This document shows, piece after piece, positions 17,878-21,777 of a DNA stretch of 48,024 nt. Every line of letters starts with the position of its first letter. The first letter of the stretch is position 1. The stretch covers positions 1 to 48,024 of the forward strand of contig JACRMP010000011.1 of assembly GCA_016214885.1 (NCBI GenBank), read 5' to 3'. The notes beneath the pieces were generated by a model, which saw only the letters and a list, made by a program, of their open reading frames with translations, had not been told where the DNA came from and did not search any database. The DNA comes from Candidatus Gottesmanbacteria bacterium (GTDB lineage Bacteria; Patescibacteriota; Microgenomatia; UBA10105; UBA927). Position numbers and translations under genes: made by a program.

Positions 17878-17906
17878 TTGACAAAAATGACAAATTGTGA
17901 TATAGT
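17878..17906 (+). promoter_or_regulatory. Sigma70-type promoter of the T-box/tyrS unit
   Basis: TTGACA-17 nt-TATAGT with TG extension. Confidence 0.75.
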
Positions 17907-17930
17907 TTTTATCAACAATTGAATACGAAA

Positions 17931-18288
17931 AGCACTGAAGGTGATGAAGTAGTAGCTAGTCTGAGACAAGAGAGAGGAGACGGTTGGTGCAAGATCTCCC
18001 GTTAGATTACCTGCGAAATACTCGCCTGAGCTGAAAGGTTGAACATCCGCCAGTTGGCGGACAGTAGACCAATCCGGGTAAGCCCGTAACAGCAGAATGT
18101 GAATGTCGCAAATGCGGAGTTCACAAATGAGGCTTAGGTAGAACCGACCTCTGGTCGGTTTTTTTGTGGCTAAAATGCCGCTTTTTAGCGCGTGAACGCT
18201 CCCCTAAGCAAACCAAGGTGGTACCGCGTGGTAAAAAAATACCCCGCCCTTGTTCCTGATTATTTCAGGGATGAGGTCGGGGTTTTTT
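17931..18288 (+). ncRNA. T-box riboswitch, Tyr-specific (specifier UAC)
   Basis: K-turn TGA/TGA, AGTA/GAA S-turn, AGAGA and GGTGCAA motifs, specifier TAC at 18019-18021, CAAGG-TGGTACC-GCG...CGC-CCTTG antiterminator, overlapping terminator; tyrS lies downstream. Confidence 0.92.
18241..18288 (+). terminator. T-box terminator
   Basis: ACCCCGCCCTTGTTCCTGA-loop-TCAGGGATGAGGTCGGGGT followed by a T tract; overlaps the antiterminator 3' strand. Confidence 0.85.
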
Positions 18289-18290
18289 GT

Positions 18291-18384
18291 GGCAACAGCA
18301 TAGTGATAAGCAAATATTGCTGAGGTAGCCCCTCAAAGCAACTGGGGCAACAGCATAGTGATAAGCAAATATTGCTGAGGTAGC
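18291..18384 (+). repeat. 39-bp perfect direct repeat (18291-18329 and 18346-18384) including the first 11 nt of the tRNA
   Basis: GGCAACAGCATAGTGATAAGCAAATATTGCTGAGGTAGC twice, with a 16-nt spacer. Confidence 0.95.
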
Positions 18385-18458
18385 AAAGGGGACAACTGCG
18401 GCTGTCGGTTAGACAGCTGGTCAACAGATCTACGGAGGTTCGAATCCTCCCCTCAGCA
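18374..18458 (+). tRNA. Atypical class II tRNA: tRNA-Tyr-like body, anticodon GTT, aberrant loop, CCA not encoded
   Basis: Acceptor GCTGAGG/CCTCAGC + A73, D arm GCA/TGC, anticodon stem GCTGT/ACAGC with loop CGGTTAG, variable stem GGTC/GATC, T arm GGAGG-TTCGAAT-CCTCC. Confidence 0.88.
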
Positions 18459-18499
18459 CCCGTGTTATGCATTATTTTTTGCACGGAGAGGAGGTGTAT

Positions 18500-19426
18500 A
18501 TGAACGATAAAGAAATATCGCGGTCATTGGGCCGTGAATTTGGTCAAGGACTACGGAGAACAAGCGGCTACGAAGAAACCAGAGCACGAATGGAAAGTGA
18601 GGGCTTGTCCGATGAGCTTCTCAACAGGACTCCGCCGGTGGGACTTAATCTGCAGCTTTTATCGGAAATGTCCGGTATCCATTTACTATCGCAGCGCATA
18701 AACCGGCACCCTGTTTCCGTCGCCATGCTGGGACTAGCGAGCATTGATGGGGTAGAGGATACCGAGCGGTTTGTACAACACGCACTCAACACAACACTTA
18801 GTGATTTCCATGTCGTCGACATTGATGAGGATATTATTGCCGAAGTAAACAAACTCAAGCGGGAGAAATCTCTTTCCCATGTAAGCCCGCATCTTATCGA
18901 TGCACGCCACACGGGGCTCGCCGAAAGATCAGTAGATATCGTCATAAGGGATCATACGGGTAACTGCTGCCCTCCTCATATCGATCGGGAAATTGACGCG
19001 GAAACCGCCCGGATTCTTAAGCCGGGGGGTACTTCTATTGTCAATATATCAACAAGCGAGCTACTTCCCACGTCCGAAAACCGGCAGGTTGTAGACCTTT
19101 CGAACGGCATACGTCGGAACACTGCGATAACTGACGCGTTACAAAATCATATATACGATCTGGCACAATTTAAACAGGAATTCGGTGAAGAAATGGAGAG
19201 CTTGCGGGGAAATCTTGTCGAAATTGAGCACCCAGGAGGCTTTGTTGTATTCGGCGAAGATCCCGATGGTCATGGGGAATGGTTCAGGAGTTTGGGTGAT
19301 CACCTGAATCTATGGCAGCGGTTAGGGTTTATTGTCAGCGATCTTAAAAGCAGGTTTGGCAACGATAGCCATACTCCGCCGCTTATGTGTATGCGTCACA
19401 ATATTGTGCTTACCAGGAAGGAGTAA
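18500..19426 (+). CDS. Divergent class I SAM-dependent methyltransferase-fold protein
   Basis: SD GGAGGTG; FHVVDID, IDARHTGL..SVDIV, RILKPGG; degenerate motif I (MLGLAS); HTGNCCPP. Confidence 0.6.
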   Translation: MNDKEISRSLGREFGQGLRRTSGYEETRARMESEGLSDELLNRTPPVGLNLQLLSEMSGIHLLSQRINRHPVSVAMLGLASIDGVEDTERFVQHALNTTLSDFHVVDIDEDIIAEVNKLKREKSLSHVSPHLIDARHTGLAERSVDIVIRDHTGNCCPPHIDREIDAETARILKPGGTSIVNISTSELLPTSENRQVVDLSNGIRRNTAITDALQNHIYDLAQFKQEFGEEMESLRGNLVEIEHPGGFVVFGEDPDGHGEWFRSLGDHLNLWQRLGFIVSDLKSRFGNDSHTPPLMCMRHNIVLTRKE

Positions 19427-19432
19427 CTCTCT

Positions 19433-20557
19433 ATGAAACTACAAACACGTTGTGTTCATCAAAACGGTCCGTTACTTACTGACGGAGACATTGTTACACC
19501 TGTCCATACGTCGGTGATTTTTGCCATGCGCACCCCTTCTTCAGTAAGCGGTGCCCAATACGGAAGGATACACAACAAAACGAGGGCAAGTGCAGAATCA
19601 GTACTGGCCGGAATACACAATGCAAAATTCGGAATTACAGCATCCAGCGGATCCGCTGCAATTACTGCAGTATGTTTGCTGTTACACCAAAAAAGCATTG
19701 TGCTGCATCACACCGAACTGTATGAAGGAACAAGGCGTATTCTGCGAACGATTATGCAGCCATTCGGGGTGACGGCTGTTCCTGTTAATTTTCACAATGT
19801 ATCGCTTGCCGGCAACGAAATAGCAAAAATAAAGCCATCATTAGTGTGGCTGGAAACACCCACAAATCCATCGCTCCGGCTGCTTGACATTGCCCGCATT
19901 GCAGCGATTGCCCGAAAGAATGAGGCATTACTTGCCGTCGATACAACCATGTGCTCCGGCCTGCTGCAACAACCGCTCGTACATGGTGCCGATATTGTCG
20001 TGGAAAGCCTCACCAAAAATCTTAATGGCCACAGCGATGCGCTTGGCGGATTTGTGGGTACAAATAACAAAAACCTTGCGCAGAAATTACGGTTTCTTAT
20101 ACAAACGACGGGTATGGTGCTTGACCCTGTTTCGGCATCTCTTATATTACGCGGTATCAAAACCGCTCCCGTACGCATAAAAGCGCAGCAGCAATCCGCG
20201 CAAACTGTAGGCAAATGGCTGAGCCATCATCCGCTTATTCGGCAGGTATTAATTCCGGGAAAAATGAATAGCGAAGAACGGCTCCTGTTACGACGACAAA
20301 TGTCCGGGAGGGGACAGCTTATTTCATTCATATTGAAACAACATGCTGACCCGATATCGACCATAGAAAAACTCCGGTTGATTTGCATAGCACATTCTTT
20401 CGGAGGAACAGAGACGATAATCCAACACCCGGCATCTATGATGGATTGGTCCCGACTAACGGAAGATCTCCCGGACAGACAGCTGCTGCGCCTTTCTGTC
20501 GGATTGGAACACCCTGAGGACATTATAAACGACCTAAAACAGGCTCTGGAACAATAG
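19433..20557 (+). CDS. PLP-dependent Cys/Met metabolism enzyme (cystathionine gamma-synthase/lyase family)
   Basis: YGR..N, SSGSAAI, LYEGT, WLETPTNP, SLTKNLNGHSD (PLP lysine), SFGGTET..QHP, RLSVGLE. Confidence 0.9.
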   Translation: MKLQTRCVHQNGPLLTDGDIVTPVHTSVIFAMRTPSSVSGAQYGRIHNKTRASAESVLAGIHNAKFGITASSGSAAITAVCLLLHQKSIVLHHTELYEGTRRILRTIMQPFGVTAVPVNFHNVSLAGNEIAKIKPSLVWLETPTNPSLRLLDIARIAAIARKNEALLAVDTTMCSGLLQQPLVHGADIVVESLTKNLNGHSDALGGFVGTNNKNLAQKLRFLIQTTGMVLDPVSASLILRGIKTAPVRIKAQQQSAQTVGKWLSHHPLIRQVLIPGKMNSEERLLLRRQMSGRGQLISFILKQHADPISTIEKLRLICIAHSFGGTETIIQHPASMMDWSRLTEDLPDRQLLRLSVGLEHPEDIINDLKQALEQ

Positions 20558-20589
20558 GTGTGCCTGTGATATAGATAAAGGAGGAAACT

Positions 20590-21777
20590 ATGGATACTAT
20601 TGAAGAACTGTTGACCAGAGGTGTGGAAAATATTATTCCGGGTAAAGAAAAACTCCGGGAGTTACTTTCCGGCGGCAAAAAGCTAAATATATATTTAGGC
20701 ATCGATCCCACTGCCACTCAAATCCATATCGGACATGCAGTGCCGTTACGAAAGCTTAACGCATTTGCCCAGCTTGGCCACAATGTCATGTTCCTTATTG
20801 GAGACTTTACCGCCCTTATCGGCGACACCTCTGATAAAGATACAGAACGGCCGGTGCTTACCAGCGAACAGATTCAGGCAAACTTTGAAACCTATAAAAA
20901 ACAGGCGGAAAAAGTTCTAGATTTTTCAAAAATAACGGTCGTTCATAACAGCGATTGGCTGAAAAAACTGGCCTTTACTGACATCGTCAAGCTTACCCAG
21001 CATTTTTCGGCCGGAGACTTTGTAAGCCGTGAACTTATCAAAAAGCGCCTCACTGAAGGAAAAAAGGTAGGACTCCATGAGCTTTTATACCCGGTCATGC
21101 AGGGGTATGACAGCTATTTCCTGGATACCGATATCCAACTCGGCGGCACCGACCAGACGTTTAATATGCAGGCCGGACGCGTGTTACAGAAGGATTTGCG
21201 CCACAAAGAATCATTTATTATCGCGAACGGCTTTCTGGAGGGCACCGACGGCCGAAAAATGAGCAAAAGCTGGGGCAATGCCATATGGCTCACTGACGAA
21301 CCCAAAGAAATGTTCGGGAAAGTCATGTCGCTCAGGGATGAACTGATCGTCCAGTATTTCACCCTGGCGACAAATATTTCTATGGATGAAATAACCAGGA
21401 TAAAAACCCGACTGGACGCAAAAGAAAACCCCATGACCCTCAAAAAAGAGCTGGCACACCGGTTGGTGAGCGAACTGCATTCGGAAGATCTGGCAAACGA
21501 CGCTACGGCAGACTTTGAGAAACGGTTCCAGAAGGGGAAAGTATCGGAGTCGGCGCTTCCTGTTGTGTCGCTTAACTCGCTCAAAACAGACAGCCCGACT
21601 GCTGACGCATTGGTTGCATTCGGCTTGGCGTCCAGCAAATCAGAAGCCAAGCGTCTCATTGAGCAAAAAGCGGTTAAAATTAACGGCATTGTAGTTGCTT
21701 CATCAAAGGATCCAGTCAAACTGCAGAAAAATGATACGGTTGAAGTGGGTAGAAAAGCTGTTAAAATTGAATCCTGA
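20590..21777 (+). CDS. tyrS: Tyrosyl-tRNA synthetase
   Basis: YLGIDPT..IHIGH, YPVMQGYD, GGTDQ, KMSKS, C-terminal S4 domain; SD AAGGAGG. Confidence 0.97.
   Translation: MDTIEELLTRGVENIIPGKEKLRELLSGGKKLNIYLGIDPTATQIHIGHAVPLRKLNAFAQLGHNVMFLIGDFTALIGDTSDKDTERPVLTSEQIQANFETYKKQAEKVLDFSKITVVHNSDWLKKLAFTDIVKLTQHFSAGDFVSRELIKKRLTEGKKVGLHELLYPVMQGYDSYFLDTDIQLGGTDQTFNMQAGRVLQKDLRHKESFIIANGFLEGTDGRKMSKSWGNAIWLTDEPKEMFGKVMSLRDELIVQYFTLATNISMDEITRIKTRLDAKENPMTLKKELAHRLVSELHSEDLANDATADFEKRFQKGKVSESALPVVSLNSLKTDSPTADALVAFGLASSKSEAKRLIEQKAVKINGIVVASSKDPVKLQKNDTVEVGRKAVKIES

Follow-up and report, generated by a model that had tools for sequence, protein, structure and literature searches.

A tyrosine T-box operon in a Gottesmanbacteria-like genome joins a tyrosine-poor enzyme pair and a loop-altered tRNA copy to tyrS

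Why the gene for a tyrosyl-tRNA synthetase (TyrRS) should share a leader with an aberrant tRNA gene and the genes for two enzymes is the question raised by positions 17878 to 21777 of a 48,024-nucleotide (nt) stretch of DNA from Candidatus Gottesmanbacteria, referred to here as the window. It corresponds to contig C2 in a genome of 1.12 Mb and 37 contigs that is rated 98% complete (G000; other G and L codes denote genomes and loci of relatives), and an orthologous locus occurs in a metagenome-assembled genome (MAG) of the same genus labelled Candidatus Gottesmanbacteria. An earlier note on this DNA had proposed a starvation-induced module in which TyrRS charges the aberrant tRNA for use or repair by the two enzymes. 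The evidence presented below points, on balance, to a T-box-attenuated tyrS operon of a Gottesmanbacteria-like member of the candidate phyla radiation (CPR), which is probably a tyrosine-starvation operon with a tyrosine-supply enzyme pair and a spare tRNA that is decaying or has been repurposed. Coordinates of the features are collected in Table 1.

The leader that precedes these genes is a complete tyrosine T-box. The covariance model RF00230 matches positions 17926-18254 of the + strand over its entire length (model positions 1-219 of 219), with 87.5 bits and an E value of 1.5e-19. This score is below the Rfam gathering score of 93, and the default scan is blank, the match being seen only at E-value thresholds; the shortfall is due to an insert of ∼60 nt in stem III. 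In orthologous leaders the scores lie between 79.4 and 94.7 bits, one of them being 93.8, and another leader reaches 101.2 bits. The TBDB specifier rule takes as the codon positions 2 to 4 counted from the 3′ end of the bulge, and for the bulge GAAAUACU it gives UAC (Tyr) at 18019-18021. The register AAU, which would specify Asn and suit the GUU variant of the tRNA, was rejected as a coincidence, since it overlaps the GAAA conserved in all leaders and violates this rule. The T-box sequence lies at 18217-18228, and its bulge UGGU (18219-18222) is complementary to the ACCA end of tRNAs that have A73. The ordinary tRNA-Tyr(GUA) of the genome, on contig C9, ends in CAGCA-C, that is, with A73, and fits this bulge. 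The antiterminator helix is as in the Rfam alignment and a competing switch is predicted, with a strong terminator at 18241-18289 made of a hairpin (18241-18283) and a U-run; the 3′ part of the leader folds at −40.5 kcal/mol. A pattern scan found GAAAUAC together with GGUGGUAC in 14 of 15 tyrS-linked leaders, the leader of G006 being interrupted by a contig end. The earlier note had described a complete Tyr T-box with a UAC specifier and a UGGU bulge fitting A73, which is confirmed by these data. Its view that this T-box heads a Tyr-responsive operon of a CPR-type genome is supported, the latter by the size of the genome and the label of the MAG.

The enzyme pair downstream of the leader is tied to tyrS well beyond the window. 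Open reading frame 1 (ORF1) encodes a protein with the fold of S-adenosylmethionine (SAM)-dependent methyltransferases, and ORF2 encodes a pyridoxal phosphate (PLP) enzyme. ORF1 homologues were searched for in 17 other genomes of the genus, of which 5 contain one, and in 23 genomes outside the genus, of which none does; the five share the order penicillin-binding protein (PBP), T-box, (tRNA), ORF1, PLP enzyme, tyrS. A wider scan of 185,579 species genomes retrieved 14 loci, comprising the five already known from the genus and nine distant ones, the latter with 42 to 47% identity in ORF1 and labelled, for example, Beckwithbacteria, Roizmanbacteria, or Microgenomates. Together with the window this gives 15 ORF1-type operons from species-level genomes, among which those of G014 and G005 are near-identical. 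ORF1 adjoins a Cys_Met_Meta_PP gene in all 15, and the gene for TyrRS, a class-Ib synthetase, directly follows the pair in 14, the exception being L112. The co-occurrence with tyrS that the earlier note had put forward as a check is therefore found. TyrRS is of the bacterial type (TIGR00234) in the window, L105, and L108 and of the archaeal type (PRK08560, 364 to 372 bits, cut-off 220) in L106, L107, L109, L110, L111, and L113. Since the pair stays with TyrRS of two evolutionary types, the link is more likely to run through tyrosine or tyrosylation than through one inherited block. Within the genus, TyrRS identity to the window enzyme ranges from 41% to 82% and does not track the identity of ORF1 and ORF2. 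In G001 and G012, for instance, ORF1 is 64 to 69% identical but TyrRS 42 to 48%, which suggests that tyrS was replaced within a conserved operon.

Both enzymes of the pair are extremely poor in tyrosine. ORF1 contains 2 Tyr in 308 residues (1.1st percentile), ORF2 2 in 374 (0.7th percentile), and TyrRS 6 in 395 (7.8th percentile), against a mean of 3.52%, where the reference is the 701 long ORFs of the genome, a crude longest-ORF set and not gene calls. This depletion is shared by the orthologues: ORF1, ORF2, and their counterparts contain 0.5 to 1.2% Tyr, with 2 to 3 Tyr in each of 14 ORF1 orthologues and 2 to 4 in 13 tyrS-linked ORF2 orthologues. The ORF2 of L112, which has no adjacent tyrS, contains 7 Tyr, and the non-operon ORF2 paralogues in G004 and G007 contain 12 and 13. 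Depletion of the cognate amino acid is thus a sharp marker at this locus that sets operon enzymes apart from their paralogues. It fits synthesis of ORF1 and ORF2 during tyrosine shortage.

The position of the pair is occupied by other genes in relatives. In a survey of tyrS leaders and tRNAs in 41 related genomes, T-boxes lie 1 to 2.9 kb upstream of tyrS, and the cargo between the two varies (cargo types in Table 1). In G002 the cargo consists of enzymes of tyrosine formation, and these are Tyr-poor as well, the 3-deoxy-D-arabino-heptulosonate-7-phosphate (DAHP) synthase-like protein, chorismate mutase, and prephenate dehydrogenase having 0 Tyr each, the prephenate dehydratase 5, and the aminotransferase 3. 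All other cargo proteins are Tyr-poor likewise, including the three of G018 (0.3 to 0.7%). Because position, regulation, and composition agree, the pair appears to be made when tyrosine is short and to sit in the slot that holds the tyrosine-making genes of relatives. The carriers of ORF1 show no sign of the usual route themselves: chorismate synthase was not found in any of the nine ORF1-bearing genomes searched for it, PDH_N was not found in any of the five searched, and tblastn of the window's genome with the prephenate dehydrogenase, chorismate mutase, and DAHP synthase of relatives gave no matches.

A similar arrangement for tryptophan exists in the same genome. On contig C29 (L114:524-3890, minus strand), a SerK/SbnI-like ORF of 155 amino acids (aa), a TrpB-like PLP enzyme (NF009057, 671.6 bits), and TrpRS stand in a row, and the TrpRS contains 0 Trp in 466 aa. 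From its gene content this row looks like an indole/O-phosphoserine tryptophan-salvage module joined to trpS; no T-box was found before it with Rfam at E ≤ 0.1. This cluster and the aro/tyrA/aminotransferase-tyrS cluster of G002 resemble the window operon in lying directly upstream of the cognate aminoacyl-tRNA synthetase and in being depleted of the cognate amino acid. They differ from it in that the families of ORF1 and ORF2 have no known role in tyrosine formation, and in that the carriers of the pair have no detected chorismate synthase or prephenate dehydrogenase.

The assignment of the three genes in the earlier note, as a methyltransferase-fold ORF, a PLP enzyme 6 nt further on, and tyrS, all in the same orientation, agrees with Pfam, the AlphaFold2 (AF2) model, and TIGR00234. 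ORF1 matches Methyltransf_11 with 25.0 bits (cut-off 21.2) and Methyltransf_25 with 25.3 bits (cut-off 27). Both matches begin at profile positions 15-22, so that motif I (GxGxG) is left unmatched, and in the alignment its place reads AMLGLAxxDG, a degenerate glycine loop. The AF2 model (pLDDT 87.5) is closest to 1ve3_B (VIA Z 18.3, root mean square deviation 3.7 over 207 residues), and the structural matches after 1ve3 form a flat list of small-molecule methyltransferases; a Foldseek search of the model gave an E value of 2.6e-11. On this model ORF1 has a Rossmann-like methyltransferase fold, with SAM binding and methyl transfer being only putative. The family has three invariant motifs, DHxGNCCPP, GHGEW, and DSHxPPLxCxRH, and this conserved site rich in Cys and His is suspected to be a metal or thiol site; H152, C156, C157, H258, H291, C297, and H300 are among the invariant residues. 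The family is small, with 26 clusters at 90% identity and no NCBIfam match; when 1.84 billion representatives were searched with a profile, only 11 matches reached E ≤ 1e-30, the weaker ones being generic Methyltransf_11/25 proteins. PDB sequence and fold searches and the ESM Atlas returned generic methyltransferases and no specific function for ORF1. One protein of 669 aa (P0029) carries ORF1 at its C terminus; its N-terminal part matched no Pfam family and nothing among the loci examined.

ORF2 belongs to the Cys/Met-metabolism PLP enzymes and retains the Schiff-base lysine (SLTKNLNGHSD, compared with SATKYLNGHSD in 4ixs). Its best solved relative is 4ixs, a protein like cystathionine gamma-lyase (CGL), with 234 bits. 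ORF2 scores under the cut-off of all 25 NCBIfam models listed, the best being 272.3 bits against 513 for PRK07811, and it falls into none of the equivalogs for cystathionine gamma-synthase, cystathionine gamma-lyase, cystathionine beta-lyase, or methionine gamma-lyase. In the tyrS-linked PLP clade 54 alignment columns are invariant, 40 of which are shared with L112 and the two non-operon paralogues. No domain known for binding tRNA or aminoacyl-tRNA was found in ORF1 or ORF2 by Pfam and NCBIfam scans. The tyrS gene is the sole TyrRS match in the genome.

The tRNA behind the terminator is recognised by the Rfam tRNA model (42.4 bits, gathering score 29), by model R1 (99.8 bits), and by ARAGORN, which gives its limits as 18373-18461 and its identity as Asn (gtt). 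It shows the cloverleaf, long variable arm, G1-C72 pair, and A73 of a class-II bacterial tRNA-Tyr, and apart from its variable arm and three changes in the anticodon loop (U33G, A36U, A38G) it is identical to the operon tRNA-Tyr(GUA) of G008. The loop (18406-18412) reads CGGUUAG where the canonical one is CUGUAAA, with GUU at 18408-18410, G33, and G38; in the fold a C32-G38 pair gives a 7-bp arm and a 5-nt loop. The window tRNA therefore lacks the GUA anticodon in a 7-nt loop with U33. As far as can be read from its sequence, it is derived from tRNA-Tyr but is no working tRNA-Tyr. Besides the ordinary tRNA-Tyr on C9, an ordinary tRNA-Asn(GUU) is encoded on contig C3.

The variant loop and the 42-nt direct repeat that runs into the tRNA are real and not assembly errors. 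They were checked in contigs and unitigs of four runs from four studies: positions 18355-18700 (in one run from 18364) are covered with 0 differences by contigs of all four, the repeat copies are bridged by a 76-nt unitig (18300-18375) in 4/4 runs, and the depth of the 39-nt repeat unitig is ∼2x that of its flanks. The earlier description of a Tyr-type body with an altered anticodon loop is thereby upheld. In run X4 a close relative, present at low depth, already has G38 but retains U33 and A36, and a relative in another run has the canonical CUGUAAA loop. The element at 18319-18342, in which the first repeat copy runs on into a sequence like the 3′ acceptor strand, folds as a short hairpin (−8.4 kcal/mol) and, from its sequence, would be an earlier tRNA copy after internal deletion. 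The small hairpin that follows the tRNA keeps its pairing in G013, G014, and G001.

Embedded tRNA-Tyr genes also occur in relatives. In 8 of the 41 genomes (G000, G001, G013, G008, G011, G004, G023, and G006) they stand directly behind the T-box terminator, and the anticodon is GUA in seven of them, the altered loop being confined to the window species. All eight genomes hold a second high-scoring tRNA-Tyr elsewhere, and genomes without an embedded copy have one tRNA-Tyr each, except G007, in which ARAGORN found no embedded tRNA and the covariance model no tRNA-Tyr anywhere in the genome. The distance from the U-run to the 5′ end of the tRNA is 4 to 12 nt in G011, G004, and G013, which leaves no space for a promoter and indicates that the embedded tRNA is transcribed by read-through from the T-box promoter. 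In the window, no promoter-like site was found at 18290-18374 by the promoter scan. The embedded tRNA accompanies three cargo types (A, B, and C) but not the classical Tyr-pathway cargo of G002, G026, and G027.

Across the 15 ORF1-type operons this element forms a decay series: an intact GUA tRNA in two (G013 and G001), the loop-mutated tRNA in one (the window), a truncated relic in two (G014 and G005), and no recognised tRNA in ten. It follows from this series that the enzyme pair needs neither the variant nor any embedded tRNA. The relic comprises 71 nt with acceptor and T arms and a 4-nt “anticodon” loop, and scores 25.9 bits with model R1; its acceptor stem keeps 6 bp, and its T stem shows compensatory changes (GGAGG/CCTCC versus AAAGG/CCTTT). 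In a Beckwithbacteria-labelled MAG, a 124-nt cloverleaf-like fold (L105:4850-4973; −49.3 kcal/mol, z −6.0, 0 of 200 shuffles as good) is flanked by a reduced Tyr T-box and the ORF1 homologue; it is not recognised as a tRNA by ARAGORN or model R1.

Uncharged cognate tRNA pairs with the specifier and the UGGN bulge of a T-box and stabilises the antiterminator. Applied to the window, a drop in tyrosine charging would let uncharged tRNA-Tyr pair with the UAC specifier and the UGGU bulge, the antiterminator would be stabilised, and RNA polymerase would read past the terminator at 18241-18289. We infer that this read-through would control all genes of the operon, yielding the embedded second tRNA-Tyr, ORF1 and ORF2, and TyrRS. 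The embedded tRNA, a normal GUA isodecoder in relatives, would have lost decoding in the window species and be a redundant copy in decay, and ORF1 and ORF2 would increase the supply of tyrosine through an undescribed route.

Several observations weigh against this reading. T-boxes with a UAC specifier were found in only 8 of the 15 ORF1-type operons, and in seven of the nine distant loci no T-box was found with Rfam at E ≤ 0.01. Position, regulation, and composition are the sole grounds on which the supply role is proposed. Selection would favour a low Tyr content in any protein that has to be made during tyrosine shortage, whatever its function, and we know of no member of the Cys/Met PLP family that makes or releases tyrosine. 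A promoter-like site inside ORF2 (20121-20148, 10/12 matches) could drive tyrS separately. Mere decay of the tRNA is also at odds with its body, which outside the loop and the variable arm is identical to that of the G008 operon tRNA, and with its variable arm, which still pairs. Together with the relic arms and their compensatory T-stem changes and with the L105 fold, the intact body suggests that a tRNA shape is kept for use.

A tentative alternative for the tRNA builds on these last points and leaves the rest of the operon as in the preferred reading. The tRNA-shaped RNA would be retained as a non-decoding element, either as an RNase P/RNase Z cleavage signal that frees the leader from the mRNA or as a Tyr-accepting, non-translating tRNA that tunes the T-box or TyrRS. 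The window tRNA, whose sequence is invariant in the four runs, retains its acceptor, D, and T arms and a paired variable arm; the G014/G005 relic has kept acceptor and compensated T arm and dispensed with the anticodon loop; and L105 has its cloverleaf-like fold, z −6.0, at the same position. G34 and U35, the main anticodon identity elements for bacterial TyrRS, are kept in the variant. However, the element is dispensable, being absent from G012, L108, and other distant operons, and tRNA copies do die at this place, as the collapsed one at 18319-18342 shows; the relics of G014 and G005 are a single event, and the L105 fold is a tRNA to neither ARAGORN nor model R1. The carrier or target role given to the tRNA in the earlier note, in which TyrRS charges the non-decoding tRNA and ORF1 and ORF2 use the Tyr-tRNA as a carrier for SAM/PLP chemistry or modify or repair its anticodon loop, is very unlikely. 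It would account for the presence of an extra T-box-gated tRNA-Tyr with cargo types A, B, and C in 8 of 41 genomes and for its absence with classical Tyr-pathway cargo, and METTL6 is reported to act on the anticodon loop of tRNA-Ser with SerRS as a platform, although its likeness to ORF1 is a generic fold match only. The pair nevertheless occurs mostly without a tRNA, ten operons having none that is recognised and two a relic that lacks the anticodon loop, and in two others it stands behind an ordinary GUA tRNA, so that the pair does not require the altered loop, which is not conserved either; the note itself had named restriction of the loop variant to this assembly as a finding that would speak against its proposal, and among the eight embedded tRNAs the variant is seen in this species only. 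Neither protein has a known tRNA-binding domain, and the pair is found with both bacterial- and archaeal-type TyrRS, which recognise tRNA-Tyr differently. That the variant works as a missense tRNA, charged with Tyr and reading the Asn codons AAU/AAC through GUU, is highly improbable. The anticodon called by ARAGORN and the Tyr-type A73 and long variable arm speak for it, but the near-universal U33 is replaced by G33, the C32-G38 pair narrows the loop to 5 nt, a normal tRNA-Asn(GUU) is present, genome-wide misreading of Asn codons as Tyr would be harmful, and no relative examined has the variant.

For the enzymes, a bolder version of the supply role is possible but doubtful: ORF1 and ORF2 could form a two-step route that makes or liberates tyrosine in CPR bacteria lacking the shikimate pathway, with the tRNA-shaped RNA kept as a processing or feedback element. 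In one version of this route, ORF1 would activate an amino-acid donor with three carbons, as in the S-methylation of cysteine, and ORF2 would join or exchange it with a phenolic acceptor. Such a route would, if true, do for tyrosine what the SerK-like/TrpB-like/TrpRS cluster of this genome appears to do for tryptophan by indole salvage. Unlikely, in our estimate, is a sulfur module of the UbiG/YrrT-MccB type, in which SAM is converted to S-adenosylhomocysteine (SAH) and by SAH hydrolase to homocysteine, the PLP enzyme consumes homocysteine or cystathionine to give H2S or cysteine plus 2-oxobutyrate, and the tie to tyrS is one of regulatory convenience. Its precedent, which also counts against the preferred reading, is the ubiG-mccB-mccA operon of Clostridium acetobutylicum, where a T-box precedes genes for a putative SAM-dependent methyltransferase, a cystathionine gamma-lyase, and a cystathionine beta-synthase (CBS) that serve Met-to-Cys conversion, MccB having homocysteine gamma-lyase activity (PMC2566862). 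The window operon shares with it the succession of T-box, SAM-dependent methyltransferase, and PLP enzyme of the cystathionine-gamma-lyase family (PMC2566862). It differs in that the T-box of the clostridial operon, as there described, is Cys specific and its third gene is the CBS-like mccA, whereas the window has UAC and tyrS; no CBS/CysK-type gene was found in G000, and ORF1 is a narrow family of its own. A related Met-to-Cys operon is yrrT-mtnN-mccAB of Bacillus subtilis. The best solved relatives of ORF2 are CGL-like. The window's genome has MetK and SAH hydrolase, no homocysteine methyltransferase of the MetE or the MetH/BHMT type was found in it, and ORF2 (one match) is the sole visible homocysteine sink. 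In the operons of G008, G007, and G011 the partner of the methyltransferase is a MetE-like protein, which likewise belongs to the enzymes that use homocysteine. Against the sulfur module stand the Tyr rather than Cys specifier and the fact that MccA, CBS, and CysK were not found in G000; SAH hydrolase was found in only two of the five distant ORF1-bearing genomes searched, and hhalign shows no significant similarity of ORF1 to the sister-operon methyltransferases (probability 22%). The module would also leave unexplained the linkage to TyrRS of two unrelated types and the Tyr-poverty of the operon PLP enzymes relative to their non-operon paralogues. Two related candidates were dropped, namely, reverse transsulfuration via CBS, as the only PALP-family gene of G000 is TrpB-like, and a single family uniting ORF1 with the sister-operon methyltransferases, as the hhalign probability does not support relatedness beyond the fold.

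In the preferred reading the window operon is of a known kind, a T-box-controlled synthetase/supply operon; what is new is the CPR host, the embedded cognate tRNA behind the terminator in relatives, and the Tyr-poor enzyme pair with tyrS. It has in common with the tyrS-type T-box of B. subtilis (RF00230, transcriptional) the long stem I, the distal motifs, UAC, UGGN/A73, the terminator/antiterminator, and tyrS as the regulated gene. It differs in its CPR host, in its score just under the gathering score, in the stem III insert with a terminator-like hairpin, and in the tRNA gene and two enzyme genes between switch and tyrS. The glyS T-box system of Staphylococcus aureus likewise has extra specialised copies of the cognate tRNA beside a T-box/synthetase system (PMC4574755, PMC12256121). 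Its non-proteinogenic tRNA-Gly copies, as described there, keep their anticodons, are conserved, and have cell-wall synthesis as their known user, whereas the window copy is limited to one species among the eight embedded, has a ruined loop, and has neighbouring enzymes that occur without it. A search of open-access text found no paper on T-boxes in CPR/Patescibacteria, none that describes a T-box terminator followed by the gene of the cognate tRNA, and none on the arrangement as a whole.

CPR bacteria are generally assumed to obtain amino acids from other organisms. An enzyme pair that is conserved, tuned to starvation, and joined to TyrRS would, if true, bear on how some of them secure tyrosine, and its SAM/PLP chemistry might be new. 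Where a T-box terminator precedes the gene of its own cognate tRNA, as in 8 of 41 genomes, the layout would give positive feedback on the switch. The series from intact through loop-mutated and truncated to lost amounts to a natural experiment on the fate of such a tRNA.

Two further claims of the earlier note held in part. It had placed a single promoter before the leader. A site with 11/12 matches is indeed present there, and a TTGAC..-N17-TA.A.T site likewise precedes the leader in orthologous loci, but promoter-like sites in the region are no commoner than in shuffled sequences (7 found, 6.8 expected). The gene upstream of the site is divergent and PBP1A-like (15272-17893, minus strand). 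The note had also seen no terminator between the parts, which does not apply to the leader, as the T-box terminator splits it from the tRNA; from there to tyrS no convincing one was found on the + strand. The hairpin nested in stem III is kept in orthologous leaders by compensatory changes (ACCGACC/GGTCGGT versus TCCCGC/GCGGGA) and could be a second attenuation point.

Table 1. Features of the window operon and cargo types of related tyrS operons
Feature	Location	Strand	Remarks
Sigma-70-like promoter, TTGACA-17-TATAGT with upstream TG	17878-17906	+	11/12 matches; putative function
Tyr T-box leader	17926-18289	+	Stem I with distal AGAGA/GGUUGGUG motifs, specifier UAC, stem III insert, terminator
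Terminator-like hairpin and U-run nested in stem III	18142-18166	+	Read from sequence and fold
42-nt direct repeat, two copies	18288-18329 and 18343-18384	+	Spacer plus first 11 nt of tRNA; 98% identity
Collapsed first tRNA copy (putative)	18319-18342	+	5′ acceptor strand GCTGAGGTAGC joined to CCCTCAAAGCAAC, 3′-acceptor-like
tRNA-Tyr-derived class-II tRNA, 85 nt, loop CGGUUAG	18374-18458	+	Rfam tRNA, ARAGORN, model R1
Small hairpin CCGUG-N15-CACGG	18460-18487	+	Between tRNA discriminator/3′ end and ORF1 ribosome-binding site
ORF1, 308 aa, atypical class-I SAM-methyltransferase-fold protein	18500-19426	+	Pfam, AF2 model, alignment
ORF2, 374 aa, Cys/Met-metabolism PLP enzyme (CGL/cystathionine gamma-synthase/methionine gamma-lyase family)	19433-20557	+	PF01053 319 bits, residues 8-373
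tyrS, 395 aa, bacterial-type TyrRS, S4-like C-terminal domain	20590-21777	+	TIGR00234 341.3 bits, cut-off 113.8
Cargo type A			ORF1 and PLP enzyme
Cargo type B	G008, G007, G011 (L042, L043, L046)		T-box(UAC) and, except in G007, tRNA-Tyr(GUA), then Methyltransf_25/11 protein and MetE-like protein (Meth_synt_2; closest solved relative 1ypx) before tyrS
Cargo type C	L044:1576-2457 (G004), L047:1432-2301 (G023), L059:2339-3295 (G006)		∼290 aa, TyrRS-like fold
Cargo type D	G002; G027, G026		G002: DAHP-synthase-like, prephenate dehydratase (PDT-ACT), chorismate mutase, prephenate dehydrogenase, aminotransferase; G027, G026: partial sets
Cargo of G018	L045:695-3584		T-box(UAC); 380-aa protein of no assigned family, HAD-type hydrolase, inosine-uridine nucleoside hydrolase

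The proteins of cargo type C form a family of 59 homologues, all unnamed, located between the T-box/tRNA-Tyr and the real tyrS. The model (pLDDT 93) matches the catalytic domain of archaeal-type TyrRS, with LIADxHA kept and the HIGH motif absent, and on this basis the family is read as a TyrRS-like pseudo-synthetase. An assignment of the 293-aa member of G004 as a cyclodipeptide synthase (CDPS), considered for its YxxxE motif, was rejected, as the top 50 Foldseek matches are TyrRS/TrpRS and there is no Pfam CDPS match. G006 holds an additional TyrRS-like gene of 316 aa.

Five further T-box matches in G000 (contigs C25, C9, C16, C29, and C27) are short, with 29 to 54 bits and a reduced stem I, and precede aspS/asnS-like, valS-like, ileS-like, and other genes; the long classical type is represented in this genome by the tyrS leader only. 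Downstream of tyrS, a RecG-like helicase appears in the window as two overlapping ORFs, with DEAD/ResIII at 22909-23679 and Helicase_C/RecG_dom3_C at 23439-24485, which may reflect a frameshift or a split gene; its counterpart after tyrS in L105 is one ORF of 648 aa.

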